Part shown: one piece after another, positions 8,971 through 27,756 of the stretch
Position numbering within the stretch: the stretch's first letter is position 1
Layout: every line of letters begins with the position of its first letter
IMG/VR virus record: IMGVR_UViG_3300005098_000017
Coordinates: 32,001 to 96,000 of that record
Origin: a virus
DNA length: 64,000 nt
Strand: one strand, 5' to 3'
Made by a program: the position numbers and the translations under genes
Notes under the pieces: generated by a model
What the model saw: the letters and a program-made list of their open reading frames with translations, nothing else
What the model was told of the DNA's origin: nothing
Database searches by the model: none

Positions 8971-8972
8971 TA

Positions 8973-9710: not shown

Positions 9711-9726
9711 CAAAAAAATTTACGGT

Positions 9727-11703: not shown

Positions 11704-11704
11704 A

Positions 11705-11914
11705 TTATGACCTCCTTGCTAGATCTTCTATATCATCACGGATCATCGCGAGGAACCTATACAGGTCGTCTGCAGATGCTTCGCCTCTTTCGTACTTATC
11801 CAGAAGTGTGACGATTGACTTTCTTAGTTCTATCAGGAAATCGGCGGCTTCATTATCAAACGAGACGGATGTGGCAGCTAGCTCTAACGCCCTATTTATA
11901 TCTATTTTACTCAC
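11705..11914 (-). CDS. hypothetical protein
   Basis: coupled ORF. Confidence 0.6.
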   Translation of the reverse strand: MSKIDINRALELAATSVSFDNEAADFLIELRKSIVTLLDKYERGEASADDLYRFLAMIRDDIEDLARRS

Positions 11915-12132
11915 TTCGTTCTCCCCGTGAGTTTATCAGCCATCTTCGCGGCACATTTTATACAGTACGGCCCGAAGGTTTTTTCGGTCTGAAACGCTCG
12001 ATAGTCATCCTCATCATCGCTGGTTTTTCTTATGTTACCAGCAACGATGAGGAATGCGAGGTCCTTCGGACCATAATTTTTACCACATATTTTACATTTC
12101 CATTTTTTGTTTTTCTTGAATAGCATACTCAT
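11911..12132 (-). CDS. small Zn-finger protein
   Basis: CKIC...CIKC, AGGAGG RBS. Confidence 0.65.
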   Translation of the reverse strand: MSMLFKKNKKWKCKICGKNYGPKDLAFLIVAGNIRKTSDDEDDYRAFQTEKTFGPYCIKCAAKMADKLTGRTK

Positions 12133-12188
12133 CCTCCTTTTCAGGTGAGGCCCCGCTCCTGCCCCACCCCGCCGCCCCCATCAGCTTA

Positions 12189-12626
12189 TTAAGCTTCTTG
12201 GGCGGCCTTCTTCATCGCATAAAATTCCTTGAGCTCTTTTGCGCTCAAGCCCAGCTTAACAGCACCAGTCATAATAACAGGCACCGATACCACAGGTGGC
12301 GCCATCGTTGCGATGATAGCACCAGTTATAGCTCTTCCTACATTCAGCATGGATTTCAGCGTGTAATGTTTTATGTCTTTACATTCCTCAGGTCTTATAT
12401 CCTTGGTTAACGCCGTACTTCCGAGGACGACCTTGGCAACGGGCCCAACGATCGGCAGCAATGTCAGGCCAGCGCCGATAGCCATGGTTGGCTTATCGGC
12501 CTCTATGATCGCGTTTCTTGCCGTTTGATATTTTTCCTTTATGAAGCCGCGGCTTCTTTCTGCTATATCCTTTATCTTTTCGCGCGGCTTCACCTTCTTT
12601 ACTTTCATAGCGAGTTTCTTTACCAC
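12189..12626 (-). CDS. putative membrane protein
   Basis: hydrophobic segments, AAGGAGG RBS. Confidence 0.65.
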   Translation of the reverse strand: MVKKLAMKVKKVKPREKIKDIAERSRGFIKEKYQTARNAIIEADKPTMAIGAGLTLLPIVGPVAKVVLGSTALTKDIRPEECKDIKHYTLKSMLNVGRAITGAIIATMAPPVVSVPVIMTGAVKLGLSAKELKEFYAMKKAAQEA

Positions 12627-12627
12627 A

Positions 12628-12972
12628 TTACACCTCCTTGCTTCTGATTTTTATTAGCTCCTCCTCTATTTTTATATCAGGATCCATCACAAAGAAGATG
12701 AGGCGCGCGTACCTGTTAACAGGATAATCAGGATAACCACCGATTGTTTCCCATGTGTGCAGACATATTATATATGTATCGCTTTTATACACGACCTCAA
12801 GCTCATCATATGTGCAACAGTCTCTTAGCATGTTACCAGAATTAGCTATCCATCTCTGTCCTACTTCTGCTTTTTCTAGGTCACTCCATGTAATCGTAAT
12901 CTCATCGCCCTCTCCATTATAGTCGAGGGCCGCGAGTCTGAATGCAATGTTCTGCTGCACTGTTTCTACCAT
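12628..12972 (-). CDS. hypothetical protein
   Basis: RBS, preceded by motif at 13001. Confidence 0.7.
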   Translation of the reverse strand: MVETVQQNIAFRLAALDYNGEGDEITITWSDLEKAEVGQRWIANSGNMLRDCCTYDELEVVYKSDTYIICLHTWETIGGYPDYPVNRYARLIFFVMDPDIKIEEELIKIRSKEV

Positions 12973-13000
12973 CCTAATACCTCCTTGTTTGTTTTAGTTA

Positions 13001-13013
13001 CCACTAAATTGAC
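13001..13013 (-). promoter_or_regulatory. GTCAAT-N4-TGG motif
   Basis: GTCAATTTAGTGG, 15 nt before AGGAGG. Confidence 0.65.
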
Positions 13014-13025
13014 ACCCGCCGGGCT

Positions 13026-13217
13026 TCACTCCTCCTCATATTCCTCCTTGTAGTATTTTTCCTGATCCGGTAACAATTCTACCAATGTCCCGCAGTATAC
13101 GCATTCATATGGAGGGTTGTCGATCCTGGCATTTTTTCCCGTCCACATTCCACACACAGGACATATCACATTGCCTGTAACGCTTACATCACCTATAACG
13201 GCGATTTTTTCACACAT
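13026..13217 (-). CDS. Zn-ribbon protein (start revised to MCEK)
   Basis: AAGGAGG before ATG at 13217; CPVC...CVYC. Confidence 0.65.
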   Translation of the reverse strand: MCEKIAVIGDVSVTGNVICPVCGMWTGKNARIDNPPYECVYCGTLVELLPDQEKYYKEEYEEE

Positions 13218-13396
13218 TTTTACCTCCTTCCTGCCTTTTTCCTTACTGTTAAACATTATCCTGCGGGGCTTCCGCCCCCACCGCCCGCCCCTTAAAGGCG
13301 GCGGCTTCTTATGTCCTCTGACCCTATGATACACAATATAAACGATGCTGCTAATAATGGTAACACAGCGAGTAACATCTTGATCCTCCTTTTGTG

Positions 13397-13669
13397 TCAG
13401 ATCGATTCCTTTTTCTTCCCAAGCAGTGCACTCAGTTGGATGTATATGCTTATAAGAACGCTCGCGATTAACCCTATTATCATGCCGGTTACCCCGACGA
13501 ACAGGGTAACCCCAACAGCTACCAGAATGCAGCTGATAGCGAAGTCTCTTAAGTAGCGATTATCCTTGAGTCCCTTTATCAGCCCTCGTTTCTTTATCTG
13601 TTTCAGTCCTTTCGTCAGACTTATATACATCCATACTAAGCCCGCGGCTGCTATCAAATATAACAGCAT
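13397..13669 (-). CDS. small membrane protein (start revised to MLLYL)
   Basis: AAGGAGG RBS, hydrophobic segments. Confidence 0.6.
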   Translation of the reverse strand: MLLYLIAAAGLVWMYISLTKGLKQIKKRGLIKGLKDNRYLRDFAISCILVAVGVTLFVGVTGMIIGLIASVLISIYIQLSALLGKKKESI

Positions 13670-13696
13670 GATCACACCTCCTTGCTTTTTTATTCG

Positions 13697-13709
13697 CCAT
13701 TTGATTGAC
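13697..13709 (-). promoter_or_regulatory. GTCAAT-N4-TGG motif
   Basis: GTCAATCAAATGG, 13 nt before AGGAGG. Confidence 0.65.
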
Positions 13710-13979
13710 CGAGCGGTTATGATATCATGGCCGCCAATGCTTCGGTGGCTTCCGGCGGCCCTTCTTTTTCTTTCTCTTGTCCTCAAACACCCTGCCCGGC
13801 TTAATGGGACCGATTACCTCCCTTGATAGGTATTTAATCATTTTCAGCACTTCGCTGCCGGGCTTCTTTCCTTTGCGGCGCTTCCTCTTGCTCATTACCC
13901 ACCGCCTTTGCGAAAAGGGGGGAGGGGGCCCCAAACATCAGGACCTCCTCCCATCTGCTCTGGCTACCCTCAGCTATTC

Positions 13980-14363
13980 TTAAAACGGCGCTTCCTCGTT
14001 ATCTTCCTCCTCAACTGGCTCAGGTGTGGATGCAGGCCTGCTCCGATGCCAGCTCGGACGCATGAACTCACCGATCGCTACTTTACATATCATTTGGAAC
14101 ACTGGAAGGGTGCAGATCTTGGTCTTGCCAAGCTTCACAACCTTACCATCGGATGTGAGGGTCTTGATGGTACCATCGTTTCTTTCATGCATAATTTTCC
14201 ACTCAGGTTTCGCTGCGCACATGGCAACCTCGGTACCATTTAGGCTGATAGAATTTCTGATAGCGTTATTGCTTGTTGAGCGGAGCATGATGAACAACCT
14301 GTTAGGACGTCTTTGAACACTAATACCACAATACGTCTTGTCAGTAATACGGAAGGTAAACAC
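13980..14363 (-). CDS. possible SSB-like protein with acidic C-terminal tail
   Basis: ends EEEDNEEAPF, like bacterial SSB tails. Confidence 0.45.
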   Translation of the reverse strand: MFTFRITDKTYCGISVQRRPNRLFIMLRSTSNNAIRNSISLNGTEVAMCAAKPEWKIMHERNDGTIKTLTSDGKVVKLGKTKICTLPVFQMICKVAIGEFMRPSWHRSRPASTPEPVEEEDNEEAPF

Positions 14364-14389
14364 GCTACACCTCCTTTCTTTTTGGTTTT

Positions 14390-14402
14390 CCAGTTGATTG
14401 AC
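14390..14402 (-). promoter_or_regulatory. GTCAAT-N4-TGG motif
   Basis: GTCAATCAACTGG before AGGAGG. Confidence 0.65.
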
Positions 14403-14407
14403 TATGC

Positions 14408-14788
14408 TTAATTTTGGTTTCCATCTCCCTCGTGTGGACAGTAATATATTTTTACATAGTCGTAGATTCTGCCAAGGCTGTCGCCATAGTCTTTTCTGAA
14501 GATCAGCATTCCGCCTCTGCCGAGCTTGAACCTGACTGTCCTCTTCTTACATTGCGCAAGCCCCGAACTCCAGGAGCGTTCGTGTTTCTCTACGATTTTA
14601 TAGTTTCCTGCTAGGATTCTGGAGTCGGCGCTGAAATTAGCGCCCATTCCGTCCAATTCCTCGACCTCGTGCTCCTCTTCTTTTCCGCATATTTCAATTA
14701 TTATCTCTACGTTCCCCTTTTCCCAGGATTCCCAAGGAAGATCTGGGTACCTTGTCTTGGCTTTTTCTATTACCTTTTTCCTTTCCAT
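14408..14788 (-). CDS. hypothetical protein
   Basis: RBS and upstream motif. Confidence 0.7.
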   Translation of the reverse strand: MERKKVIEKAKTRYPDLPWESWEKGNVEIIIEICGKEEEHEVEELDGMGANFSADSRILAGNYKIVEKHERSWSSGLAQCKKRTVRFKLGRGGMLIFRKDYGDSLGRIYDYVKIYYCPHEGDGNQN

Positions 14789-14815
14789 TTTACCTCCTTT
14801 CTTTGTTTTTTAATA

Positions 14816-14828
14816 CCATTAAATTGAC
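14816..14828 (-). promoter_or_regulatory. GTCAAT-N4-TGG motif
   Basis: GTCAATTTAATGG before AGGAGG. Confidence 0.65.
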
Positions 14829-14989
14829 TTTTTGAGGTAGAATGGTAGCGCTATTAGTCCAGCAATGAGGCCGCCGCATTGGGCAGCTGTTACATTGCCA
14901 GTTAAGATCGCAATGAGAAGTGATGTTGGGAATGCAACCGCGAAGCCGACGGCTGCTCCCCTTAATGAGGCTCTTAATACTCTCTTCAT
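14819..14989 (-). CDS. 56-aa membrane peptide (not in ORF track)
   Basis: AAGGAGG then MKRVLRASLRGAAVGFAVAF...YLKKSI. Confidence 0.6.
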   Translation of the reverse strand: MKRVLRASLRGAAVGFAVAFPTSLLIAILTGNVTAAQCGGLIAGLIALPFYLKKSI

Positions 14990-15255
14990 TTCCCCTCCTT
15001 GTTGATAAACGAGCGCACTGTGGTTATCAATCTCTCCTTAGCCTCCTCGGCGCGCTCCTTAATCTCTTTCTGTCCTATCCTTTTCAATCTCAGGAATCGG
15101 AAGAATCCTATGACTCCAACCGCTGCTAACACGGCACCCACTGTGCCGCCTAACAACAACGCCAATATAGCGGTAACCCAGCATGCAAAGTCGGGCTCAT
15201 CGCTGATTATGTATGGTGCGAAGTAAGCAGGGATGGCCAATATGATCCTATGCAT
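14986..15255 (-). CDS. small membrane protein
   Basis: RBS, hydrophobic. Confidence 0.65.
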   Translation of the reverse strand: MHRIILAIPAYFAPYIISDEPDFACWVTAILALLLGGTVGAVLAAVGVIGFFRFLRLKRIGQKEIKERAEEAKERLITTVRSFINKEGK

Positions 15256-15345
15256 TTTTACCTCCTTCTGATGAGAACATCATAGCTATTATCGTGCCTA
15301 GACAAAAGCCTAGCAAAAAGCTAATATATCCTATATATTCCGGGA

Positions 15346-15537
15346 TCATAGTTCTCTTACCTCCGCTTTTATGTTTTCGAGTCCCTCCTTCTCAATCTTT
15401 TTTACCATGTTTCTGAGGCGGGTTATCATTACCCACCTCCGTATTTCATTGATGATTATGCCGATTCCGATGGCTATGAGGAACAACCCAGCAACTACCA
15501 TTGTGCTTTTTGCAGCTATATCCATTAGAACTACCAT
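15346..15537 (-). CDS. small membrane protein
   Basis: RBS, N-terminal TM segment. Confidence 0.65.
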   Translation of the reverse strand: MVVLMDIAAKSTMVVAGLFLIAIGIGIIINEIRRWVMITRLRNMVKKIEKEGLENIKAEVREL

Positions 15538-15729
15538 TTATACCTCCTTTGACTCCAATAATGCTTTCTGAAGCGCGTCTATGATGAATTGCGCTTCGTG
15601 ATTCCATAACTTCTGGACGAAGATAGCACCGTCCCGATAGTTGATAAACGAGATCATGATCTTCCGAGGGTCATACTTGTCATTAACCGTTTGCACCGAT
15701 ATCTCGAGATCTTCTGATTTATACTCCAT
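15538..15729 (-). CDS. hypothetical protein
   Basis: RBS and upstream motif. Confidence 0.65.
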   Translation of the reverse strand: MEYKSEDLEISVQTVNDKYDPRKIMISFINYRDGAIFVQKLWNHEAQFIIDALQKALLESKEV

Positions 15730-15753
15730 TATTATTACCTCCTTTTTTTTATT

Positions 15754-15766
15754 CCATCAGATTGAC
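15754..15766 (-). promoter_or_regulatory. GTCAAT-N4-TGG motif
   Basis: GTCAATCTGATGG before AGGAGG. Confidence 0.65.
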
Positions 15767-15883
15767 CCTCCTCCCCTCCTTGGTATGGCGGGGCTTATGG
15801 TGGGACAAGGGGAGAGAGCTTGGTGAGGGAGACCTTTTAAGGGATCAAGGTGGGAGAGGGGAGGAGAGCCGTGTTAATCCCTC

Positions 15884-16123
15884 TTACTTATAATGTATTT
15901 TGATTAGAGCCTGCTTTCCATACTTCCATCTAAGCCTCCGCTTCAGTTCACTAACGTCCGCAGCAAAAACCTCGTGGAGGCCGTCAGTTCTGGTAAACTT
16001 CCAGCATTTTATGTTACCAACCTGTGTCGGTTTCCCGTGTGGAACATAAGCATGTACTGTCTCCTTCGTCCTCACGGAGATTATATCTATGTTTTTTACT
16101 AACGGATAAAATTTCAACGACAT
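15884..16123 (-). CDS. hypothetical protein (start revised to MSLKFY)
   Basis: AAGGAGG RBS downstream of pseudoknot. Confidence 0.65.
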   Translation of the reverse strand: MSLKFYPLVKNIDIISVRTKETVHAYVPHGKPTQVGNIKCWKFTRTDGLHEVFAADVSELKRRLRWKYGKQALIKIHYK

Positions 16124-16148
16124 AGAATACCTCCTTTTTTTTAATGTG

Positions 16149-16201
16149 AAGCCCGCCATTAAATCGAAGCGCGCAACCCGGCGGGCTTAGGTCGCGCGCT
16201 T
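16149..16201 (-). ncRNA. 5'-UTR H-type pseudoknot PK1
   Basis: stem AAGCGCGCGACC/GGUUGCGCGCUU; loop AAGCCCGCC pairs with GGCGGGCUU. Confidence 0.7.
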
Positions 16202-16214
16202 ATTTTTTATTCCA

Positions 16215-16227
16215 CCATTTTATTGAC
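16215..16227 (-). promoter_or_regulatory. GTCAAT-N4-TGG motif
   Basis: GTCAATAAAATGG just upstream of PK1. Confidence 0.65.
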
Positions 16228-16886
16228 TATAGCCAGTCGACTTTAGCATATGGCTTGCCGTTTACATACCACCTCTTCTCGGACGTTATGAGCACGGTTT
16301 CATAGCGCTCAAGTGGGTAATCGTTACGCTCCCTCACCACGACAGCTTTAGGCTCAGGGATGATGGCATCGGTACCATGTGGAGGTGTGGGAGGGAAAAT
16401 TGAAACGAGCTGACGTGGAAGGATGACAAGAGAAAGGTGTTTGCCTTTCTGTTTGATGCGACTCCTGATGGTCTTCTCGAGACCCTTCTCGACGATTACG
16501 TAGCCATACGAATCCGCAGCCTCCTGGGCGAGTGTGTTCGCCATTTTATTCCCTGTTCTGGCTGTGTGTTTTACAATAACCTCCTTATGCTGGTTATCAG
16601 CGTAGTACCTAGCCAGCTCATATAATTCCATAAGCTCAGGCTTCTTAATATCATATTCTTGGTTAAACTGCTTCACCACTAACTGTGAGTCGCTGTGTAT
16701 TGTGGTATCACCCTGGATGTACTGGCTAATGTATGTCGCAAGAACTAGTGCTGCCCATTCAGCCTCGTTGTTTGTTGCCTCCCCAATGGGTATTGATAGT
16801 GATATACCAACCTCCGGAATATATATCCCAATCCCAGCGGGACCGGGATTGCCTTTTGATGAGCCATCAATGTAAATGTTAGTCAT
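16227..16886 (-). CDS. rnhA: ribonuclease HI with C-terminal extension
   Basis: [31 protein letters not shown] (last Asp replaced by Asn). Confidence 0.85.
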
Positions 16887-16900
16887 AATACCTCCTTTAT

Positions 16901-17323
16901 TTATGGTTTAACTTTTCGTAAGCCGAGGCAACCTATCGGTCGTATGCTTCCACTGCTGGTCTTTTCATATACAGGATGAGCAATCGTGTATAACTTGTCT
17001 ACGTTAGGTAGGTTGAGAGCAACTGCTGCAGAAGCATATTGATTACTAACAATTATTATATCAGCATCATCAGGGATGGGATCAATATCCTGCACCCTCT
17101 GTGTTATAACTGGGATCATAACCTCATCGTTCACTGGACATTCGTAAAAGATGCTCGGAAGTAATTCAGTTTCATGATGGACGTTCAGAAGGGTTCCAGA
17201 GGGTGGAATTATGATAACTAGCTTGGTTTTTCCAGGTTCTATGAAGTATTTCCTGTGTTCACTTATGTAAACAGCATCCTCAAAAATACATATCTCGTGA
17301 GGAGTGCAGTTTAAGATTTTCAT
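16901..17323 (-). CDS. conserved phage hypothetical protein
   Basis: ILNCTPHEI...IPPSG...IIVS...IGC pattern; RBS. Confidence 0.75.
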
Positions 17324-17345
17324 TACATACCTCCTTTTATTAGGC

Positions 17346-17404
17346 GGGCCTCATTACACCCCATGCAGAGCAGCAGGGCGAGGCCCTTAACCCTGAAGCT
17401 CTGC
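17346..17404 (-). ncRNA. 5'-UTR H-type pseudoknot PK2
   Basis: stems GCAGAGC/GCUCUGC and CAGGGU/GCCCUG; loop GGGCCUC pairs with GAGGCCC. Confidence 0.6.
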
Positions 17405-17419
17405 GAAGAAAGAGAGCTA

Positions 17420-17752
17420 TTAGGACAAGCGTTCTGCTTCCTGTCTAATCCGAACGGCATCCCTTACTACCTCTAACAGCGAAGGCGGTATAACCCTATT
17501 GTTCGAGGTTTTCCCAGTGCGCAAATCAACTGCGACAGCACAATCATGCTCGTAAAAGTATACTATATCCCCATCCGGGAAGAATGTTCCATTAGCAGTA
17601 GCAACATTATAAATCAGATCGTTGGTGTATTCGCCGGGATCGCGATATGGTGTATAATGATCCTGAGCGTCCGGTGTTTCACAACCGGTAGTGCTTCTCA
17701 CACATACATCACACCTGCCACTTCTACACAGACGGCACTTATCAAATAACAT
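17420..17752 (-). CDS. Cys-rich hypothetical protein
   Basis: RBS downstream of PK3. Confidence 0.7.
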   Translation of the reverse strand: MLFDKCRLCRSGRCDVCVRSTTGCETPDAQDHYTPYRDPGEYTNDLIYNVATANGTFFPDGDIVYFYEHDCAVAVDLRTGKTSNNRVIPPSLLEVVRDAVRIRQEAERLS

Positions 17753-17778
17753 AATACCTCCTTATTTTAATGTTTTAT

Positions 17779-17833
17779 GCCCGCCATTAGAACCAAGCCA
17801 GGTGAGGCCGGCGGGCTTAGCCCTACCCGGCTT
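17779..17833 (-). ncRNA. 5'-UTR H-type pseudoknot PK3
   Basis: stem AAGCCGGGU/ACCUGGCUU; loop AAGCCCGCC pairs with GGCGGGC. Confidence 0.7.
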
Positions 17834-17842
17834 TTTTAATTT

Positions 17843-17855
17843 CCAGCTGATTGAC
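17843..17855 (-). promoter_or_regulatory. GTCAAT-N4-TGG motif
   Basis: GTCAATCAGCTGG upstream of PK3. Confidence 0.65.
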
Positions 17856-18221
17856 CTATACAAGAGATGGTCCAACTGCATCCTGAACCTGAGGCTTTCC
17901 ATACTCAAGCTTCCACCCATTCTTCGGTCGTAAATTTCTCTTGAACCATTCGAACCATGCACGATCCATGACAACGATCTTCTTACTTCTTCTGAATGCA
18001 ACTGCAATCCACTTGCGGTTACCAGTCCTGTTAATCCTGAAGAACCATACGATATCATTAGCATGTAGTTTACCACTGCGTACTAGCCTGGCCCACTGGC
18101 TGCTCTTCTCAGGATTCTGAGCAGCCAATACAAATGTGTAACTATTTTTCCACCTCGCTATAGAGGTGGTGCCTCCCAGAATCTTGGGGAGGTTGATTTT
18201 TAGAAACTGAGTCAATGACAT
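17856..18221 (-). CDS. basic hypothetical protein (start revised to MSLTQF)
   Basis: GAGGAGG RBS downstream of PK4. Confidence 0.7.
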   Translation of the reverse strand: MSLTQFLKINLPKILGGTTSIARWKNSYTFVLAAQNPEKSSQWARLVRSGKLHANDIVWFFRINRTGNRKWIAVAFRRSKKIVVMDRAWFEWFKRNLRPKNGWKLEYGKPQVQDAVGPSLV

Positions 18222-18245
18222 AATACACCTCCTCTTTTGGAGGTT

Positions 18246-18303
18246 GCCTGCCACTTTTACCCACAGATAAGGCGAGGCCGGCAGGCTTTACCCCGCCTTA
18301 TCT
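18246..18303 (-). ncRNA. 5'-UTR H-type pseudoknot PK4
   Basis: stem AGAUAAGGCG/CGCCUUAUCU; loop AAAGCCUGCC pairs with GGCAGGC. Confidence 0.7.
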
Positions 18304-18310
18304 TATCACT

Positions 18311-18323
18311 CCAGCTCATTGAC
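18311..18323 (-). promoter_or_regulatory. GTCAAT-N4-TGG motif
   Basis: GTCAATGAGCTGG upstream of PK4. Confidence 0.65.
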
Positions 18324-18412
18324 TCCATCACGAGCCAACAAGCCGGCCAAACCCTCCGGCACTCTTGCGGCACCGCTCCTCGCAGGCCGCACACAGGGGA
18401 GGAGAGGCTTGG

Positions 18413-18479
18413 GGAGGCCTCTTAGACCCTCTATGAGGGAGCTCCAGCGCCACGTCAAGGCGGGCCTCCAGTGCTGGAG
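18413..18479 (-). ncRNA. HDV/CPEB3-like ribozyme fold, copy A
   Basis: P1 CUCCAGC/GCUGGAG, P2 GGAGGCC/GGCCUCC, P3 GCC/GGC, L3 UUGACGU, P4 CCCUC/GAGGG, J4/2 UCUAA. Confidence 0.8.
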
Positions 18480-18577
18480 TAGCCCCCCGGTGCGGGGGCT
18501 TCATTTTTTTCACCTCCTTTCTAGCGGGATGAACTAGCCCGGCCATCTAGCCCATCCCGCGGTTTAAGGTTTAACCT

Positions 18578-20983
18578 TTAATCAAGTTTCCAGAAGTTGA
18601 GCCAGAATTCGCGATCGGCAGTAGCAAGAGGATGAAGACCAACAGGGGTTTTGATTCCAAGAATCCGCGCGAGCTGCCAGTTGCGCTTCTTACCAGTATG
18701 CAGTTCTACAAGAAAGCGTACATGTGCTTCAAGATCAGATTCAGTACCGGCAACAATAGCCAAGAAATCGCTCTCAGCGACAGTAAGAGATTTCCAAGTG
18801 GTAAGAATCGCCTGAGGTTCAAATCTAGCAAGAAGCCTGCGGAAACGCCTGTTTAGCCTCCGGAAGTTCCTAGTAAGAAGTACACGAAGTTCAGATACTT
18901 TACTCGCAAGGAAGCGCCGACGCCTGTCGAGCTCTCTGCGCCGCCTGCCAAGGGTAGCCAGAGCATCAGAAAGGTGATCAAGCCTAGGTAGCAGCCACTT
19001 TTCCATTTTTCGCCTCAGAACTTCGTTTCTGATCCCAGATGCTAGGAACCTGACTTTAGTTTCAGGTCTCGCATTAGCGAAGAGTCTACGGCTCCGATTA
19101 ACTACCGTATCAATCGCCGTTACTTTCTCTGCAAGAGCATTCACTTCATTCTCTATCTTCCGTATTCGAGAGAGCGTCCGTCCGAACATGCGCCTCCTTA
19201 TGCGATCCCACTTGAGGAACAATGCCTTAACTTCTGGATCAATGGTGCCATCAGGAATAAGATCCTTAAGAGACCTAACCTCTGGCTCAGCAAACTCAAC
19301 TTCAGGAATAAATTCAGCAAGAGGACCTGTTGGAGTTATTGCTACTGGATCCGCCTTCGCAGTCCTATTAGCGATCATTTGAGTAACAGTATCAAGCCTG
19401 GCAGTCGTACTCGCGAGTAGATGCAGTCCCGCTTCTACCTCATGACGAAGCTCCGGTTCTTTACCATTAGCAAGATTCACTGCAGCTTGGAGTAGCGCTC
19501 CAGTTCTCGCAACAAGATCCATATTAAGTTCAGTATCAGAAAGAAGCATTCGGGTAAAACCAGCATCAGCTCTCGCAATCATTTCCTTACCCAGCTCAAT
19601 ATTTTCCACTTCGGTACTAGGATCCATTCTCCACTCTCCGAAAGATATCTCCTTTATCCGGCTTCGTACGCTATCGAAGAATTCCTTAGCAACGAGAGGT
19701 TCCTTGAAGACCTTGGATGCCGCGGCGAGAGCCACTTTGTCGCCATCGGCATCCCATCCGCTAGGCATATCTGCAGGGTGTACCAGAATCGCATGCGCAC
19801 GATGGTCAACAATAATAGGAAGGATAAGAGTATCACCAGGCAAGATGGGCGACTTCTGTATGAGTAGGAGTTCTCCATCTTTCAGACCAAGCATCCGTGC
19901 AATCACAGGAGGAATAACAGCAGTGCCGGGATGTGCATTCTGAAATCCCAGATAGAAGCCCGGGCCTAGTCTCAACTTCCGAAGTGCAATCTTTAAGTGG
20001 TCCAGAAGCACTCTCCGCAGGAAGCCTGCCTCCTTTATGAGGCCGAATTTCCGCAGAATATCAGCAGTCAGAGTCAGCACTGCACTAGGTTCATTGATCG
20101 GATCAGCGTTTTTAACAAGGATATCAGCCGCTACCTCAGGATCAGAAAAACCATTAATAGCTTCAGCAATCTGCTCCTGAATCCGTTCAACAAACTCAGG
20201 CGCTGGATTAACATTCCATCCGAGTTTCCTTGGTAGAAGGAACCAGCGCGGCAGAGCTTGGCTGAGACTGATGCCGCCCGCGAATACGGCACCAACCTCA
20301 TGCAGCATGATGGTTCGCCCGAGTTCGAGTACGAAGCGCCGCCTCTTGATGAGTTTTGCGGTGTCAGCATCAGCAACGATATCAGTCCCTGTTTCCAGCT
20401 CCGTGAGGACCTCATCTGCAAGAGCTTCATTTCCAAGATACAACATCAGCCTCTGGAACCCAACTCTGCCGGGAAGAACTGGTACCGCTATCCCTTTCAG
20501 ACCAATAGCAGTCACTTTAAATCCATTCTTCACAAGAGCACGGGTAACCTTAGAAACCTCAGCCTCTGTAGGAGCATATGCTGCTGCCACAAGTTTTGTA
20601 AACCGTTCGCTAACGAAGAAGATCCCATCCACATTCATTTTCATATTGAGCTTGAGACCACGGATGCGAAGATCCATACCAGCCACACGTTCCGGCTTGA
20701 AATCCCAGCCTTTATTCGGAATTTCCGGCGTTGTCATCATCTGGATGCGCTTTCCAGGAAGAGATCTCAGATCAAATTCAGGATCACCGAGAATATTCGC
20801 AATCACTCTATTAACAGTCTCTATAGCAGAAGTAGGAACCACCTTGAAGATCCTACAATCTGGAATCATAGTAGGCTTCATTGGAAGATCAGAGTTCAGA
20901 TCAGGATCAAATGCGAAGAAGACACTAGCACCAGCTTCAGTAAATAACGCTTGCAGAGGAGACCTCGGTATTCTTTCCATCAT
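18578..20983 (-). CDS. single-subunit two-barrel (DPBB) RNA polymerase, eukaryotic RdRP/YonO-like (start revised, 801 aa)
   Basis: motifs DGIFFVS, GLKG, KSPILPGD and SGWDADGD in the same order as cellular RdRP DGIGxIS, GYKG, KNPCLHPGD and SGxDLDGD; AAGGAGGTG RBS before 20983. Confidence 0.8.
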   Translation of the reverse strand: MMERIPRSPLQALFTEAGASVFFAFDPDLNSDLPMKPTMIPDCRIFKVVPTSAIETVNRVIANILGDPEFDLRSLPGKRIQMMTTPEIPNKGWDFKPERVAGMDLRIRGLKLNMKMNVDGIFFVSERFTKLVAAAYAPTEAEVSKVTRALVKNGFKVTAIGLKGIAVPVLPGRVGFQRLMLYLGNEALADEVLTELETGTDIVADADTAKLIKRRRFVLELGRTIMLHEVGAVFAGGISLSQALPRWFLLPRKLGWNVNPAPEFVERIQEQIAEAINGFSDPEVAADILVKNADPINEPSAVLTLTADILRKFGLIKEAGFLRRVLLDHLKIALRKLRLGPGFYLGFQNAHPGTAVIPPVIARMLGLKDGELLLIQKSPILPGDTLILPIIVDHRAHAILVHPADMPSGWDADGDKVALAAASKVFKEPLVAKEFFDSVRSRIKEISFGEWRMDPSTEVENIELGKEMIARADAGFTRMLLSDTELNMDLVARTGALLQAAVNLANGKEPELRHEVEAGLHLLASTTARLDTVTQMIANRTAKADPVAITPTGPLAEFIPEVEFAEPEVRSLKDLIPDGTIDPEVKALFLKWDRIRRRMFGRTLSRIRKIENEVNALAEKVTAIDTVVNRSRRLFANARPETKVRFLASGIRNEVLRRKMEKWLLPRLDHLSDALATLGRRRRELDRRRRFLASKVSELRVLLTRNFRRLNRRFRRLLARFEPQAILTTWKSLTVAESDFLAIVAGTESDLEAHVRFLVELHTGKKRNWQLARILGIKTPVGLHPLATADREFWLNFWKLD

Positions 20984-21039
20984 ATCACCTCCTTTCCGCC
21001 GCGGATTTCGTTGCCCTCGGTGCGGCACTCCGAGGGTCG

Positions 21040-21124
21040 CCGGGCTTCGAGCGTCATTGGTGCCAAGGCTGGCCATAGAATGAAGCCCGGAAATTCTATG
21101 GCCATGGCCGGGCGCCTTGACACC
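21040..21124 (-). ncRNA. elaborated 5'-UTR pseudoknot PK5 (polymerase leader)
   Basis: stems GGUGUCAAGGC/GCCUUGGCACC and UGGCCAUAGAAU/AUUCUAUGGCCA; loop CCGGGCUUC pairs with GAAGCCCGG. Confidence 0.65.
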
Positions 21125-21155
21125 TCTGCTCTTTCGCGCATTTTATTTAACCTTA

Positions 21156-21596
21156 TTATCGATTAAATTCTCCATCCAATACAGCAAGCAGTAATCTTTG
21201 GAGTCTTCTTGGATCGGGTAAACCATATGCAATTCCATAGATTGGGGACCATGAATCCACATTCACCCTAACTGTTGTTCCCAAAATTTTGAATTCGAAA
21301 GCATAATCATCGATAGTATAGCTACCCTCCATTACCGATTGGAAAATGAGTGCGTCTACTAGATCCTCACAAGCCCACTCCGGATGTTGCTCAAGAATAA
21401 CTCTCTGGATCTCTAAAGTATCACACCAACCCACAATAACTCTACGTTCATCATCCATAACGTACCCCGACCGCAGATGCAAATTGTACCATTTCTCACC
21501 CACCTTGGCAGTTACCCAAGGCGGTGAGAAGTAGTAGTCGCCGACTTTAACTTTGTCGGCGATCCAGTCACCGATTACGTCCCACAACCATGACAT
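21156..21596 (-). CDS. hypothetical protein
   Basis: AAGGAGGTG RBS just after ribozyme B. Confidence 0.75.
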   Translation of the reverse strand: MSWLWDVIGDWIADKVKVGDYYFSPPWVTAKVGEKWYNLHLRSGYVMDDERRVIVGWCDTLEIQRVILEQHPEWACEDLVDALIFQSVMEGSYTIDDYAFEFKILGTTVRVNVDSWSPIYGIAYGLPDPRRLQRLLLAVLDGEFNR

Positions 21597-21627
21597 TTTA
21601 CACCTCCTTTAGTTTGACTTTCTTCTC

Positions 21628-21699
21628 GAGGGACTCTTAGATCCCGCATAAGCGGGAAGCCCCGGCGCCACGACAAGGCGGTCCCTCAAAAAGCCGGGG
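21628..21699 (-). ncRNA. HDV/CPEB3-like ribozyme fold, copy B
   Basis: P1 CCCCGGC/GCCGGGG, P2 GAGGGAC/GUCCCUC, L3 UUGUCGU, P4 UCCCGC/GCGGGA, UCUAA; begins immediately after the stop codon of 21700-22170. Confidence 0.8.
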
Positions 21700-22170
21700 T
21701 TAACTCAATTTGACATCATTATTATCCTTCTCTTTCTTTATCCACTCTATCAATTCATCCACTAGGCGCTCCACATTATAATCATCAATAATAAGAAGCG
21801 CCCTCCTGACCTTGTAGCCGAGCACCTCATGCGCTTTTAGCACATGCCTCGGCATCCAAGGCCAGGTCTCATTGTATCCCCCATTATATTTGATTTGGAG
21901 AAGGATTACCTCCTTCTTATGGGGGATACCAATGCTGACGTCGATTTTAAATACGACGTCAGCTTTACTCCCGACAGGATAGTCTATTAATTTCCATCCC
22001 GCCGGAAGCTTGGAGGATAGTTCTTCAATGAATCTATCCTCCGCTTCGAAGCCAGCTCTATGCGCCTCATGTGCGATAGAGCTAACCTCGAAATCCGGGC
22101 GGATTATTTCATGACATTCCGCCCAGAATTTTCGCGCTATAGTGCGGGCCTTCTCCATTTCATTTCTCAT
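21700..22170 (-). CDS. possible PD-(D/E)XK nuclease-fold protein
   Basis: GFEAEDRF...D...IDV...LQIK spacing. Confidence 0.4.
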   Translation of the reverse strand: MRNEMEKARTIARKFWAECHEIIRPDFEVSSIAHEAHRAGFEAEDRFIEELSSKLPAGWKLIDYPVGSKADVVFKIDVSIGIPHKKEVILLQIKYNGGYNETWPWMPRHVLKAHEVLGYKVRRALLIIDDYNVERLVDELIEWIKKEKDNNDVKLS

Positions 22171-22233
22171 TTATTACTCCTCCATATGCATTCCGCCAAG
22201 GAAGTGACAAGTCCCCAAGGTCTTCTACCGTTG

Positions 22234-23070
22234 TCATAATATCACCTCCCTTACTTTGATAACAGGGTTAACCCAATCAACAAAATGATAGATTTTGTTT
22301 ATACGAGGGGGACAACCTTGGTCTCCCTTTATTTCGATATCATTATGATCAGCTATCCATACCTCATGAAACTGATTAAACAGTTTCTTAAATATAGGCG
22401 CCGCCTCCATCTCATATCCCGGCTTAACCTCTATATTATTCGCCAGAAGAACATTATCGTTACCGGTCACCGCTACCATAAGCGCACGAATCTTATTGTT
22501 TTCCACATCTTCCATCACATATGTGATGGCATCACCAAACGTCATGGTGTGCCATCCGTCATGGAAGATGTGTGCGCAGCAATGTACATGGAACCCTAAG
22601 AACGGAAATCTTGGATCTTTACGCGATAGTGGACGAAGTAACCAGCGTTCCGTTCTAATTACAGGTAAATCTGTTATGTCCACAGCCGGTAATGAGATCC
22701 ATTCCCGAAATAATTTCTGAATTTTACCACTATGAAGGTCTATTTTTGTATACCTTGGATGCCACCGCCAAAATTCTTTCCAAAATTCGCGGTGGCCATA
22801 TCGTCTAGCCCAAGATGTCACCAAGTTTTCCCTCGGTGACATCCTCTCATCGAGGCCTGTTTCATTAGCGGCCTCAATGAGATGGGGGCTTAGTGGCCCC
22901 CTAAACTTAAAGATATACCCTGCAAATTCTGGCCGCAAAAGTGGCGTTAGAAGCCACAAGGCATCGCGGCCGATTTTATTTAAATTATCACGGCCGTATG
23001 CCCTTATGGCTATCTCGATAAGAGGTTGCAATGTCTTATTCTTCATCAAGCCTTCCAAATATGCATTCAT
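22234..23070 (-). CDS. hypothetical protein (LG..CC..NNIE motif, PcfJ-like by weak resemblance)
   Basis: AAGGAGG RBS; family call from recalled motif only. Confidence 0.55.
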   Translation of the reverse strand: MNAYLEGLMKNKTLQPLIEIAIRAYGRDNLNKIGRDALWLLTPLLRPEFAGYIFKFRGPLSPHLIEAANETGLDERMSPRENLVTSWARRYGHREFWKEFWRWHPRYTKIDLHSGKIQKLFREWISLPAVDITDLPVIRTERWLLRPLSRKDPRFPFLGFHVHCCAHIFHDGWHTMTFGDAITYVMEDVENNKIRALMVAVTGNDNVLLANNIEVKPGYEMEAAPIFKKLFNQFHEVWIADHNDIEIKGDQGCPPRINKIYHFVDWVNPVIKVREVIL

Positions 23071-23107
23071 TTTTACCTCCTTTATTTTTATACATATTCT
23101 CCATTTT

Positions 23108-23166
23108 TGCCCGCATTAGTTTACCAAGGGCACCATCTGACCTGCGGGCATTGATCAGATGGCGCC
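23108..23166 (-). ncRNA. 5'-UTR H-type pseudoknot PK6
   Basis: 14-bp stem GGCGCCAUCUGAUC/GGUCAGAUGGUGCC; loop AAUGCCCGCA pairs with UGCGGGCA. Confidence 0.7.
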
Positions 23167-23232
23167 TATATACAAAATGGGCACCGTATAGTCATGGTAA
23201 CAATACGGTGCCCTCACAACATCCCCTTTTAT

Positions 23233-23310
23233 TAGGGTGCTCTTAGACCCTTAGGGATTGGACCTAAGGGAGCCCCTCCACCACGTCAAGGTGGCACCCT
23301 ATCGGAGGGG
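23233..23310 (-). ncRNA. HDV/CPEB3-like ribozyme fold, copy C
   Basis: P1 CCCCUCC/GGAGGGG, P2 UAGGGUGC/GCACCCUA, P3 ACC/GGU, L3 UUGACGU, P4 CCCUUAGG/CCUAAGGG, UCUAA. Confidence 0.8.
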
Positions 23311-23363
23311 TAGCGGGGTCTTGGACCCCGCTCTTGACTCTTGAGGCCGGCCGGTTTATTTTT

Positions 23364-23570
23364 TTAATATTTCCTGTAATCATGATACAAATGGATTATA
23401 CTTTCATACCTGCCAAATATTTTGACAGGCATAGCATGCAAATCTGTTACTTTCATGCCTTCATAGAAGAATTGACCTTCTCCAAAATACTTATGGAGAA
23501 GGTCTGTTTCCTTTATAGGATGATCTAGCAAGAACAAAACTCCTTCTTTTATAAACCCAATCACCGGCAT
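23364..23570 (-). CDS. 68-aa cassette protein (start revised to MPVIGF)
   Basis: AGGAGG directly after PK7. Confidence 0.7.
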   Translation of the reverse strand: MPVIGFIKEGVLFLLDHPIKETDLLHKYFGEGQFFYEGMKVTDLHAMPVKIFGRYESIIHLYHDYRKY

Positions 23571-23582
23571 GATAAACCTCCT

Positions 23583-23643
23583 CGCCGCACCTTGGTTCAA
23601 CTCCCAGTATGCATACGGTGCGGCACTTATATGCATACTGGGA
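23583..23643 (-). ncRNA. 5'-UTR H-type pseudoknot PK7
   Basis: 15-bp stem UCCCAGUAUGCAUAU/GUAUGCAUACUGGGA; loop AAGUGCCGCACC pairs with GGUGCGGCG. Confidence 0.75.
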
Positions 23644-23659
23644 TACCGGCCGGCCTTAT

Positions 23660-23734
23660 GGACACTCTTAGACCCTTAGGGATTGGACCTAAGGGAGCCC
23701 TCCAGCCACGTCAAGGCGGTGTCCTTCTGGAGGG
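23660..23734 (-). ncRNA. HDV/CPEB3-like ribozyme fold, copy D
   Basis: P1 CCCUCCA/UGGAGGG, P2 GGACAC/GUGUCC, P3 GCC/GGC, L3 UUGACGU, same P4 as copy C, UCUAA. Confidence 0.8.
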
Positions 23735-23786
23735 TAGCAAGGCCATCATGTGAGACCTTGCTTTGGCTTGGGCGGCAAATCCTTCC

Positions 23787-23993
23787 TTAAAATTCGTAAT
23801 ACCAGACTTTTTTTCCAATTCTTTCAATATATTTGGCAAGTTTCCTTACTTTTCTAGTAGGTCTACCACCTGTGTAAGCCATACCTGATACCAAAGGCCT
23901 AAGAAGACTGACTCTGCCATCTGGAAATAATTCCCCAACAAACCTGATCAAATCCTTGCCTATCCAGAGATCAACTATAACTGTCCTTGTCAT
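23787..23993 (-). CDS. 68-aa cassette protein
   Basis: AAGGAGG directly after PK8. Confidence 0.7.
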   Translation of the reverse strand: MTRTVIVDLWIGKDLIRFVGELFPDGRVSLLRPLVSGMAYTGGRPTRKVRKLAKYIERIGKKVWYYEF

Positions 23994-24006
23994 TTTTTCC
24001 TCCTTT

Positions 24007-24067
24007 CGCCGCGGTCAGTTTTAACCACCAGTGGGCCCACACCGCGGCATTTATGGTACCCACTGGC
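24007..24067 (-). ncRNA. 5'-UTR H-type pseudoknot PK8
   Basis: stem GCCAGUGGGU/GCCCACUGGU; loop AAAUGCCGCGGU pairs with ACCGCGGCG. Confidence 0.75.
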
Positions 24068-24083
24068 TTGCCGCCCAAGCCAT

Positions 24084-24154
24084 CGGACGCTCTTAGACCT
24101 AGCCACAAGGCTAGGAGCCCCTCCACCACGTCAAGGTGGCGTCCGTCGGAGGGG
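24084..24154 (-). ncRNA. HDV/CPEB3-like ribozyme fold, copy E
   Basis: P1 CCCCUCC/GGAGGGG, P2 CGGACGC/GCGUCCG, P3 ACC/GGU, L3 UUGACGU, P4 CCUAGCC/GGCUAGG, UCUAA. Confidence 0.8.
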
Positions 24155-24207
24155 TAGCAAGACCCCAAGGGGCCTTGCCTCGTCTACGGGGGCGCCAATA
24201 GACCGTA

Positions 24208-24492: not shown

Positions 24493-24507
24493 TTTATCCT
24501 CCTTTTT

Positions 24508-24568
24508 CGCCGCGCCTTGGTTCTACGCCCAGCATGTACGCGGCGCGGCATTTACGCACATGCTGGGC
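24508..24568 (-). ncRNA. 5'-UTR H-type pseudoknot PK9
   Basis: 15-bp stem GCCCAGCAUGUGCGU/GCGUACAUGCUGGGC; loop AAAUGCCGCGCC pairs with GGCGCGGCG. Confidence 0.75.
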
Positions 24569-26136: not shown

Positions 26137-26528
26137 TTTATCTCCTTATTATTTTTATCGTTGAAATATGTTTTTCTAAATTCCTCTAGGATAGGTTCAT
26201 CACCTGTACCATAGAGGACGGCGTGCATCCATTCAGTTACCTGATCTGCTGTATGGTGTGGAAATACATCCTTCATGCATCCGAAGTATTTTTGCCAGTT
26301 GGTTGGTTTAGGTTTTTTATGTTCTTTTATAGTCCATTTTTTGGTAGCTGTGGCGGATCCGTAGGTTGTGAGGATGAGGCCTATAATTATTATTATTATG
26401 GTGTATGTAGTGGGATTATTGGTGTAGTGGTGGAGGAGGAAGCCGGCCGCAGTGGTAAGTAGGCCCCAGAATCGTTTGCTCCTCCAGAAGGGTTTGGTGT
26501 TATTATTGTTATTATCGTGTGTGTTCAT
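26133..26528 (-). CDS. holin-like two-TM protein with soluble tail
   Basis: KPFWRSKRFW followed by two TM segments. Confidence 0.5.
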   Translation of the reverse strand: MNTHDNNNNNTKPFWRSKRFWGLLTTAAGFLLHHYTNNPTTYTIIIIIIGLILTTYGSATATKKWTIKEHKKPKPTNWQKYFGCMKDVFPHHTADQVTEWMHAVLYGTGDEPILEEFRKTYFNDKNNKEIK

Positions 26529-27756
26529 TTTGGGTCTCCTTTATGTTATGAAGCCCGCGCTTCAGTATATTAATACTTGCATTATAATCTCTATCGAGGG
26601 TTGCACCACAGAACGGGCATTTATGTATACGATCGTGGAGTGCCTTAGGTACCTTATGTCCACATGAGGAGCATGTCTGCGTAGTATATGCTGGGTTAAC
26701 CTTGATGACTTGTGAGCCGTGAAGCCGCGCCTTGTAGGATGTTAGATTGATAAGTGTGTTCCATCCTGCGTCGTAGATGTATTTAGAGAGGTGAAGCCGG
26801 CGGCGCTTGCTTACAAGATCATGTATTTTTATATCCTCGAATATAATAACATCATAGTTAGTAGCGAGCTGATGTGAGATATGATGGAGGAAGCCGCGCC
26901 GCATGTTAGCTAATCGTTCATGAAGTCTGGCTAGTTTACGCCTCTGTTTCATATAATTAGCACTCCCTCGCTGCTTGCGCGAGAGCTGTTTTTGTACACG
27001 CTTTATACGTTTTTCGAGTTTGGAGATGAAGCGCGGGTTAGATACAATATTACCATCACTTGATACGATGAGATTCGTAAGCCCGAGATCTATACCGATG
27101 ACGCGCTGCTTACTATTAATATCGGTAACGATAGTAGTGTCATTATTATTGGGTACTTCAACTGTTACATATGCATACCATCTACCACTGGGATGTCTCT
27201 TTATAGTAACATTTTTGGCTTTAGTCCATTCGATAGGTCGGTGAAGGCGGATTTTTAAGCCGCCGAGTTTGGGTAAATGAATATATGCGAACTTATCATT
27301 CAGTTTCTCAAATTTAATGACAGGATACCCATCCGGATAGTTTTTATGAGTCATCCAAACTTGTGGATATGTAAGTGATAAGTATTGATCAGGGTTTTTG
27401 GGTTTAGGCGGACTTATATGTCCTTCTTTATTCCTGATGGCTACAAAGAAACGCTTATATGCCCAGTCAATCTTATCAATTATAGCCTTTAAGACACCTG
27501 AATAAACGAGCCTTAAGGCAGGTTCCTCTCTTTTAAATGCGGTTAGGTTACGTTGCCTCTCAAATTTTGTAGGGGTTCTATGTTCTTCATCCCATATACG
27601 TCTGTATTCATTTATTTCGTAATTATAGAACCAGCAGAGGATGGACAGCCAGTTTTCTAGTTTATATTCCTGTAGTGTTGTTGGATAGGCTCTGAATTTG
27701 TAGGTGAGGTAGGAAGCCGCCGCCTTATCAGTATTTTTTGATCCTTGTTTATTCAT
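26512..27756 (-). CDS. tnpB: IS200/IS605-family TnpB RNA-guided endonuclease
   Basis: YKFRAYPT, IGIDLGL, FEDI, TTQTCSSCG, CPFCG..DRDYNAS; RuvC D/E/D intact. Confidence 0.92.
   Translation of the reverse strand: MNKQGSKNTDKAAASYLTYKFRAYPTTLQEYKLENWLSILCWFYNYEINEYRRIWDEEHRTPTKFERQRNLTAFKREEPALRLVYSGVLKAIIDKIDWAYKRFFVAIRNKEGHISPPKPKNPDQYLSLTYPQVWMTHKNYPDGYPVIKFEKLNDKFAYIHLPKLGGLKIRLHRPIEWTKAKNVTIKRHPSGRWYAYVTVEVPNNNDTTIVTDINSKQRVIGIDLGLTNLIVSSDGNIVSNPRFISKLEKRIKRVQKQLSRKQRGSANYMKQRRKLARLHERLANMRRGFLHHISHQLATNYDVIIFEDIKIHDLVSKRRRLHLSKYIYDAGWNTLINLTSYKARLHGSQVIKVNPAYTTQTCSSCGHKVPKALHDRIHKCPFCGATLDRDYNASINILKRGLHNIKETQNEHTR

Follow-up and report, generated by a model that had tools for sequence, protein, structure and literature searches.

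A predicted compact two-barrel RNA polymerase encoded in the early arm of a tailed phage

Catalytic residues and fold of the 801-residue protein

The DNA considered here is a stretch of 64,000 nucleotides (nt), called the window below, which covers bases 32001-96000 of the 147,433-bp virus record IMGVR_UViG_3300005098_000017; the record is about 84% complete. On the minus strand of the window lies a gene for an 801-amino-acid (aa) protein with the catalytic residues of two-barrel RNA polymerases (RNAPs), referred to below as the polymerase gene. The source phage is a double-stranded DNA (dsDNA) tailed virus, and its record also carries genes for terminase, portal, and family-B DNA polymerase (PolB), as well as for a ribonucleotide reductase and a UvsX-like recombinase; the portal has distant counterparts in Bacillus phage 0305phi8-36 and in a Moorella phage. 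The polymerase gene is located in the early/replication arm, outside the structural arm, and its parts, all on the minus strand, are as follows.

18578-20983, minus strand: polymerase gene, 801 aa and stop codon, with homologues at 80-93% and 38-40% identity
20984-20995, minus strand: strong Shine-Dalgarno sequence AAAGGAGGTGAT, directly 5' of the ATG
20324-20686, minus strand: region of the first (beta/Rpb2-like) barrel, residues ~100-220, with D119 (20627-20629), K156 (20516-20518), and K163 (20495-20497), invariant in the family alignment A1
19640-19981, minus strand: second (beta-prime/Rpb1-like) predicted double-psi barrel, residues ~335-448, with K377-S-P379 (19847-19855) and D411-A-D-G-D415 (19739-19753)
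19454-19621, minus strand: helical region after the second barrel, residues ~455-510, candidate bridge helix and trigger-loop base
18779-19246, minus strand: C-terminal Arg-rich long helical hairpin, residues ~580-735, with helices 583-635 and 654-718

The open reading frame (ORF) listed at this place, 18578-21076 on the minus strand, gives 832 aa from an upstream ATG. The ATG at 20983-20981, with AAAGGAGGTGAT immediately before it, gives the 801-aa protein, and the 31 further upstream codons are a translation of a GC-rich structured leader. A plus-strand reading of 18578-20983 was rejected because stops occur throughout. A preliminary description of the locus had listed the same 801-aa ORF, its motifs, and the DxDGD at 19739-19753, all of which are borne out, with the ORF read on the minus strand; the strand was among the points that it omitted.

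The motifs are DGIFFVS (119-125), FKVTAIGLKG (155-164), QKSPILPGDT (376-385), and SGWDADGDKV (408-417), the aspartates of D411-A-D413-G-D415 being encoded at 19753-19739. Eight residues are invariant across all two-barrel RNAPs, namely D709, R738, K743, R962, P964, D1007, D1009, and D1011 of QDE-1 (PMC2919709). Their collinear counterparts in the polymerase, mapped by motif order, are D119, K156, K163, K377, P379, D411, D413, and D415, so that D119/K156/K163 of the first barrel region correspond to QDE-1 D709/R738/K743 (PMC2919709). By residue class, seven of the eight universal positions agree, and Lys377 stands where QDE-1 has R962, a conservative change present in all six family members. 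All motif residues are invariant in these six, down to 31-33% identity. The full collinear pattern DG...[RK]x2-8KG...[RK]xP...DxD[GT]D occurs in the polymerase ORF only, among the 862 six-frame ORFs of the 147-kb genome, the expectation being 0.01 per shuffled proteome. The shorter pattern [RK]xP...DxD[GT]D is confined in the same ORF set to the polymerase and a giant protein of 2353 aa (0.25 expected). The catalytic signature thus exceeds chance.

Two AlphaFold models and one model from the ESM Atlas bear on the fold. The whole-protein AlphaFold model has a mean predicted local distance difference test score (pLDDT) of 49 and a predicted template-modelling score (pTM) of 0.28; its first-barrel region, with block-mean pLDDT 54-82, contains six strands and helices. 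With this model, Foldseek places QDE-1 and maize RDR2 at ranks 1-2 (E ~0.006) and returns nothing at E <=0.001, and VIA-align returns coiled-coil matches to residues 578-734 only. Searches with this model are dominated by the C-terminal coiled coil. A core model restricted to residues 95-520 reaches block-mean pLDDT 54-84 over the second barrel. Its first Foldseek match is maize RDR2 (E 8.5e-4, probability 0.98), with QDE-1 at E 1.2e-3, and the remaining rows are double-psi beta-barrel (DPBB) domains, of which isolated ones have a template-modelling score (TM) by target of 0.63-0.73 and a root-mean-square deviation (rmsd) of 2.7-3.5.

In a VIA-align search of 48,161 representative chains, the top seven matches of the core model are the largest subunits of Pol I (human and S. 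pombe), archaeal RNAP, Pol IV, vaccinia RNAP, Pol II, and Pol III, all at the active-site barrel (Z 9.3-10.2, rmsd 2.4-3.5). Human Pol I gives Z 10.2 (rmsd 3.5, 125 residues aligned), archaeal RNAP Z 9.9 (rmsd 2.4, 105 aligned), and Pol II Z 9.6. The DxDxD loop lies in the part of the model that overlays the Rpb1 active-site barrel. Also found are P74-26 gp62 (Z 8.6, 215 aligned, model residues 136-420), QDE-1 (Z 8.4, 191 aligned), P23-45 gp96 (Z 8.0, 24% identity), and the RNAPs of phages AR9 and phiKZ. For a distant homologue, P0007, the Atlas model (pTM 0.59) has three matching clusters, with TM 0.54-0.56 and 546-564 residues aligned; two are named RNA-dependent RNA polymerase (RdRP), one of these with PF05183 on 63% of its members (TM 0.54 by query, 564 residues), and the third is unnamed. 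It aligns with the RdRP-type clusters across residues 3-783, and the next class follows at TM 0.25.

In the core model, the second barrel is a double-psi beta-barrel of the Rpb1/beta-prime type. The first barrel would be a second double-psi barrel at the same active site, as suggested by the motifs and the P0007 Atlas model. Membership in the two-barrel superfamily is well supported by the invariant residues, the core model, the P0007 Atlas model, and language-model features. The preliminary description had proposed a two-barrel polymerase with QDE-1-like relatives and named AlphaFold with Foldseek as the way to verify it. Language-model features and the Atlas agree with the two-barrel assignment, Foldseek and VIA-align place QDE-1 and RDR2 among the nearest solved relatives, and the core model gave them the E values quoted above; of the two double-psi barrels, the second was found as such, and the first is predicted from motifs and the P0007 model.

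The helical segment that follows may contain a bridge helix. Nine residues in it are invariant in alignment A1 (G465, K466, D473, T477, R478, Q499, N506, G507, and K508), and it is collinear in hhalign with the region after DYDGD in gp64 of phage P23-45, a weak match (E 0.002, probability 13%). The Arg-rich hairpin gave generic coiled-coil matches only in the fold search, and a clamp or nucleic-acid-binding role for it is a guess.

The family is new and very small, it belongs to a known kind of enzyme, and no sequence method joins it to others. A word-indexed search of 5.8 billion proteins gave three relatives at 80-93% identity, and an exhaustive HMMER search of 1.84 billion representatives gave only three clusters at 50% identity: its own cluster, P0006 (1109 aa, 40% identical over residues 5-517), and P0007 (784 aa, 38% identical). 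Conservation is concentrated in the N-terminal ~520 residues. Pfam, PHROGs, and NCBIfam gave nothing meaningful for the protein, the PDB sequence library gave nothing with either the protein or the family profile, and tblastn against 50,697 phage records gave no match. PF05183 does not match the polymerase up to E 1. In hhalign, a 12-sequence YonO alignment is collinear and not significant (E 0.17); the gp64 match mentioned above, made with the single sequence, is not significant either, nor is the profile-profile comparison with gp64/gp62 (E 0.3 whole, 0.05-0.39 for barrel slices). Home-made hidden Markov models (HMMs) of the barrel regions of gp64 and YonO did not pick out the polymerase ORF in the phage proteome. 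The Rpb1/Rpb2 families PF00623 and PF00562 have no match in the genome; T7-like PF00940 has none either, though control genomes also gave none, and hmmscan of the polymerase protein returned nothing. With language-model features of residues 1-520, the 30 nearest clusters include 26 with PF05183 (score 0.95). Traits that distinguish the family are Lys377, an RNase H partner (fused in one lineage), and the long Arg-rich helical tail.

Ribozyme-like elements around the polymerase gene, a directional motif downstream

Five elements resembling the hepatitis delta virus (HDV) ribozyme, with the core CCTTG(A/T)CGTGG, lie on the minus strand, their aligned segments falling within 18405-24158 of the window. 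They and the features discussed after them are listed here.

18405-18482, minus strand: HDV-like element, ~95 nt past the polymerase stop codon
21623-21700, minus strand: HDV-like element
23236-23313, minus strand: HDV-like element
23661-23738, minus strand: HDV-like element
24081-24158, minus strand: HDV-like element
8958-18323, minus strand: block with ten GTCAAT-N4-YGG sites, their 5' bases at 18323, 17855, 16227, 15766, 14828, 14402, 13709, 13013, 9710, and 8970
16227-16886, minus strand: RNase H gene, 219 aa, Pfam RNase_H E 1.8e-11
9727-11703, minus strand: ligase gene, 658 aa, which joins a LigD-type 3'-phosphoesterase region at the N-terminus to an ATP-dependent ligase/RNA-ligase-like core and an OB domain
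20990-21040, 23600-23650, 24020-24075, and 24505-24560, minus strand: sites of a shared leader

The elements at 21623-21700 and 18405-18482 flank the polymerase gene together with a 146-aa ORF, so the preliminary description had been right to put the gene between two ribozyme-like elements. Each of the five is preceded by a GC hairpin, and TTG(A/T)CGT (L3) and TCTAAGAG (J4/2) are invariant; a scan of the 147-kb genome with the invariant TCTAAGAG string gave no sixth copy. In an alignment of 11 sequences (the five window copies and six from relatives), the HDV-like nested pseudoknot of P1, P2, P3, and P4 has 93.7% of cells paired, against 45-52% with slid partners. Compensatory changes occur in 16 of the 21 pairs, and the P2 pseudoknot is 100% paired. 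Neither the window nor the elements match any Rfam family, HDV-type ones included, at gathering score or at E 1. A search of the two distant polymerase lineages for two conserved element strings found neither at their loci, which indicates that the elements are not a trait of the enzyme family. A role in processing a polycistronic early mRNA would explain them without an RdRP.

The shared leader joins the polymerase gene with three upstream small-ORF cassettes; in it, a TGCCGC...GCGGCG stem closes directly onto the AAAGGAGG ribosome-binding site.

The first GTCAAT site lies ~80 nt past the last HDV-like element, so that the polymerase gene marks a switch in the style of expression. Over the whole genome, GTCAAT-N4-YGG occurs 12 times on the strand of the polymerase gene and once on the other, and all 12 same-strand sites are downstream of the polymerase gene, beginning ~255 nt past its stop codon; neither the genome scan nor the window scan gave a site upstream of it. 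The window holds ten, all on the minus strand, against 1.00 +/- 0.93 expected. The extended consensus, ~25 nt long, is GTCAATnnAnTGGnAnnnAAAAAA, and five of the sites stand 23-30 nt 5' of a ribosome-binding site. The sites are retained in the relatives at 80-93% identity. The P0007 phage has another motif, GGAAAATAGG, with eight sites against 0.09 expected, all eight past the polymerase gene and on its strand. In the P0006 phage, two clear ATCAAA-N4-TGG sites follow the polymerase gene, and there is a third, weaker look-alike. The motif is thus phage-specific and directional, changes with the polymerase, and begins where the polymerase gene ends, a pattern to be expected of a cognate promoter.

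A reading of the motif as a -35/-10 promoter was dropped, as no conserved hexamer stands 16-18 nt past GTCAAT. Sigma-70-like sites number 41 against 31.8 +/- 5.6, no clear enrichment, and none is obvious 5' of the early unit. Several leaders past GTCAAT sites, at 17790-17830, 16170-16200, and 18270-18310 and in relatives, carry a GC hairpin with the loop (T)AAGCC(C/T)GCCGG.

The RNase H gene is in the unit behind the site at 17855, the second of the motif-driven units that follow the polymerase gene. In P0006 (L001:6497-9826), an RNase H is fused at the C-terminus of the polymerase (residues ~983-1106; Pfam RNase_H 28 bits against a cut-off of 25.8, NCBIfam E 5e-17), and in P0007 an RNase H gene lies 31 nt upstream of the polymerase. 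The window RNase H is homologous to the fused domain (E 3e-8) and to the RNase H beside P0007 (E 5e-13), and the three proteins diverge from each other to a degree similar to that of the polymerases. RNase H is co-inherited with the polymerase in all three lineages, a conserved partnership that the preliminary description had left out. The simplest account is that RNase H probably handles RNA:DNA hybrids that remain after synthesis by a minimal polymerase; according to the YonO paper, the lid of cellular RNAPs prevents R-loops (PMC5467207). P0006 also has a further N-terminal stretch of ~100 residues that looks hydrophobic.

The 658-aa ligase shares the motif-driven block, and the same gene stands in the same block in the relatives L003 and L009; a smaller protein with a DNA-ligase OB domain is found nearby in the P0007 phage. 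Since HDV-type cleavage leaves 2',3'-cyclic phosphate ends, a link of the ligase to RNA end repair is conceivable.

Transcription, priming, and other possible roles

Single-chain two-barrel RNAPs are rare minimal relatives of the cellular transcription enzyme, and few have been characterised: YonO, gp66 of a crAss-like phage, and gp64 and gp96 of P23-45. The assayed phage enzymes YonO (PMC5467207) and P23-45 gp64 and gp96 (PMC10770324) are DNA-dependent. In P23-45, the virion RNAP gp96 transcribes the pre-early genes, among them the gene for the compact non-virion two-barrel RNAP gp64, which then uses a motif of its own to transcribe early and middle genes (PMC10770324). This virion and non-virion pair, absent from the preliminary description, is the closest functional precedent.

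Like the present polymerase, P23-45 gp64 and its counterpart P74-26 gp62 (PMC10770324; PDB 8f5m) are single-chain two-barrel enzymes of a comparable size class (616 against 801 aa) with the same order of motifs, DG..., ...KG, RxP/KxP, and DxDGD, followed by helices. Each of the two, gp64 and the polymerase, has its gene in the early arm, and each tailed phage also has a giant polymerase, here a candidate. In the gp64 system the motif serves a block of genes and the polymerase gene itself is outside the regulon, an arrangement that would fit the present locus if the motif acts as a promoter. Unlike gp64, the polymerase has a different A/T-rich promoter-like motif, an extra Arg-rich C-terminal hairpin, Lys in place of Arg, and an RNase H partner, and there is no significant sequence or profile similarity between them.

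The candidate giant polymerase is the 2353-aa protein mentioned above (genome 115714-122775, plus strand, ~19.7 kb past the end of the window; L014:6715-13776). It carries GRMP...DWDTD and lies amid very large plus-strand ORFs that follow the packaging genes; no match was found in Pfam, NCBIfam, or the phage records. Its motifs and position make it a candidate giant virion two-barrel RNAP.

YonO of SPbeta (PF05183; PMC5467207) is likewise a single chain of ~800-840 aa and a DNA-dependent RNAP for a block of phage genes, and it shares with the polymerase the DxDGDK end of the catalytic loop. A YonO-like gene is also reported (PMC2919709) for Bacillus phage 0305phi8-36, one of the two phages with a distantly similar portal. 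The parallel with YonO drawn in the preliminary description has in its favour the shared DxDGDK and the language-model and Atlas neighbours, which are PF05183-bearing phage and bacterial clusters, but PF05183 and hhalign gave nothing significant. The two families also differ in extent, the YonO family comprising >4,600 clusters at 90% identity and that of the polymerase three clusters at 50%.

QDE-1 and RDR2 (PDB 2j7n, 7y7t, 7w88) are the best full-length Foldseek matches (E 8.5e-4 to 5e-3, 340-385 columns), with VIA-align Z 8.0-8.4 over ~190 residues and the same eight-residue catalytic constellation; the TM by query, obtained from a weak core model, is only 0.25-0.29, and sequence similarity is absent. 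They are larger and copy RNA, whereas the polymerase stands in a dsDNA phage with promoter-like DNA motifs. The second barrel superposes best on beta-prime/Rpb1, on the barrel with their catalytic Asp triad; multi-subunit RNAPs differ in that here both barrels lie in one 801-aa chain.

Taken with the close precedent of P23-45, this consistent pattern suggests that the protein is probably a single-chain, non-virion, promoter-specific, DNA-dependent RNAP of the two-barrel superfamily that serves the middle genes. A DNA-dependent RNAP for the GTCAAT-N4-YGG genes was also the default proposed in the preliminary description, and it stands because of the two-barrel fold and of a motif that is real, strand-specific, and limited to the block downstream of the polymerase gene. 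In the proposed mechanism, D119 and the basic pair K156/K163 of the N-terminal barrel would bind the nucleoside triphosphate, the second barrel would contribute K377/P379 and the Mg-binding triad D411/D413/D415, and the helical segment after it would serve as the bridge helix. The polymerase gene would be expressed early, on a long minus-strand transcript made by the host RNAP or by the candidate 2353-aa virion RNAP and cut into units by the HDV-like elements. The polymerase would then recognise the ~25-nt promoters GTCAATnnAnTGGnAnnnAAAAAA before the small downstream operons, including those of the RNase H and the LigD-like ligase, in a cascade mirroring gp96 to gp64 of the Thermus phage P23-45, and the RNase H would remove RNA:DNA hybrids left by the minimal enzyme.

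Several points weigh against transcription of the middle genes as the function. Both AlphaFold models are weak overall (mean pLDDT 49), with one barrel moderately confident in each, and neither YonO nor gp64 is reached from the family by any sequence profile method. In the RxP element, Lys377 takes the place of an Arg that is otherwise universally invariant. The GTCAAT motif could be the site of another phage-specific regulator. Plain transcription leaves the tight link between the polymerase and RNase H unexplained, and no primase is recognised in the record.

Replication priming is a rival role, which we regard as improbable. The enzyme would make RNA on the phage DNA mainly as primers for PolB, the RNase H would trim or remove it, and the LigD-like ligase would seal, all three acting as a single module; besides being promoters, the GTCAAT sites would in that case serve equally for priming or as origin-like sites, and some transcription is compatible with this. 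T7 RNAP primes at its origin as well as transcribing. Such a role accords with the linkage of polymerase and RNase H in three lineages (fused, adjacent, and nearby), where the RNase H proteins are homologous, with the 3'-phosphoesterase ligase in the same block and the OB-domain protein nearby in the P0007 phage, and with the presence of PolB in a 147-kb record where Prim-Pol, Toprim_2, and DnaB_C have no match. The missing primase means little, however, since the record is incomplete and highly divergent, with most of its proteins unrecognisable, and the twelve dispersed, directional sites, five of them shortly before a ribosome-binding site, resemble promoters rather than origins. Two-barrel enzymes are not known to act as replicative primases. 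In a fuller version, to which we give a similarly small chance, the polymerase and RNase H would be one RNA:DNA-hybrid machine, the RNA laid at GTCAAT-N4-TGG being either processed into PolB primers or cleared before the ligase seals. If this were true, a phage without a recognisable primase would have transcription-coupled priming built on a two-barrel polymerase.

It is very unlikely that the polymerase takes RNA as its template, copying or amplifying the end-paired, ribozyme-delimited RNAs whose genes lie immediately upstream, in the manner of QDE-1 and the plant RDRs. The closest full-length solved Foldseek matches, RDR2 and QDE-1, are RNA-dependent enzymes, and QDE-1 works on both DNA and RNA templates (PMC9508822). 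The gene is bracketed by two of the five covariation-supported elements, a placement that, to the preliminary description, made RNA-templated activity worth testing. A hint of such activity in the placement finds no support: the elements are local, being confined to 18405-24158 with their strings not found in the loci of the two distant lineages, and mRNA processing suffices for them. YonO, gp64, and gp96 are all DNA-dependent, the phage is a dsDNA tailed virus, the arrangement of the DNA motif requires no RNA template, and the RNase H partner suggests RNA:DNA hybrids rather than double-stranded RNA.

Also very unlikely is a different product, with the protein acting as a two-barrel DNA polymerase or a reverse-transcriptase-like enzyme and the RNase H clearing the RNA strand; the P0006 fusion recalls this, a polymerase joined to RNase H being the classic retroelement layout, but PolB is already present in the phage and the eight-residue signature was defined for ribonucleotide polymerases. 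Archaeal PolD demonstrates that two-barrel enzymes can make DNA (PMC10770324), but the structural neighbours listed for the polymerase are RNA polymerases and other DPBB proteins, with PolD not among them.

If the transcription cascade is true, the phage has two unrelated-looking two-barrel polymerases, one giant and one compact, and the polymerase gene is the point at which expression passes from one polycistron processed by ribozymes to numerous short units with promoters of their own. As a pair, the enzyme and the ~25-nt motif could also serve as a compact orthogonal transcription system, and the RNase H link would offer a concrete route to how minimal polymerases cope with RNA:DNA hybrids.

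Other features of the phage

An assignment to the crAss-like phages of Bacteroidota was dropped, since a strong AAGGAGG stands at nearly every gene and the portal is nearest to those of Bacillus and Moorella phages. A tRNA scan found none. In the P0006 phage, a gene-free and partly N-masked region 5' of the polymerase (L001:1470-2260) contains six direct copies of AACGCCAGTATAG(T/G)(G/A)AG in ~800 nt, which may be an origin or a promoter cluster.

A TnpB/Cas12f-like protein (OrfB_IS605, Cas12f1-like TNB) is encoded at 26512-27756 on the minus strand with no adjacent TnpA, and its gene occupies the same place in the relatives L003 and L009. The terminase large subunit (53842-56388, plus strand, 848 aa) gives PHROG matches in two separated stretches, 63-203 and 558-679, a split that points to an insertion, for instance of an intein or of an additional domain.

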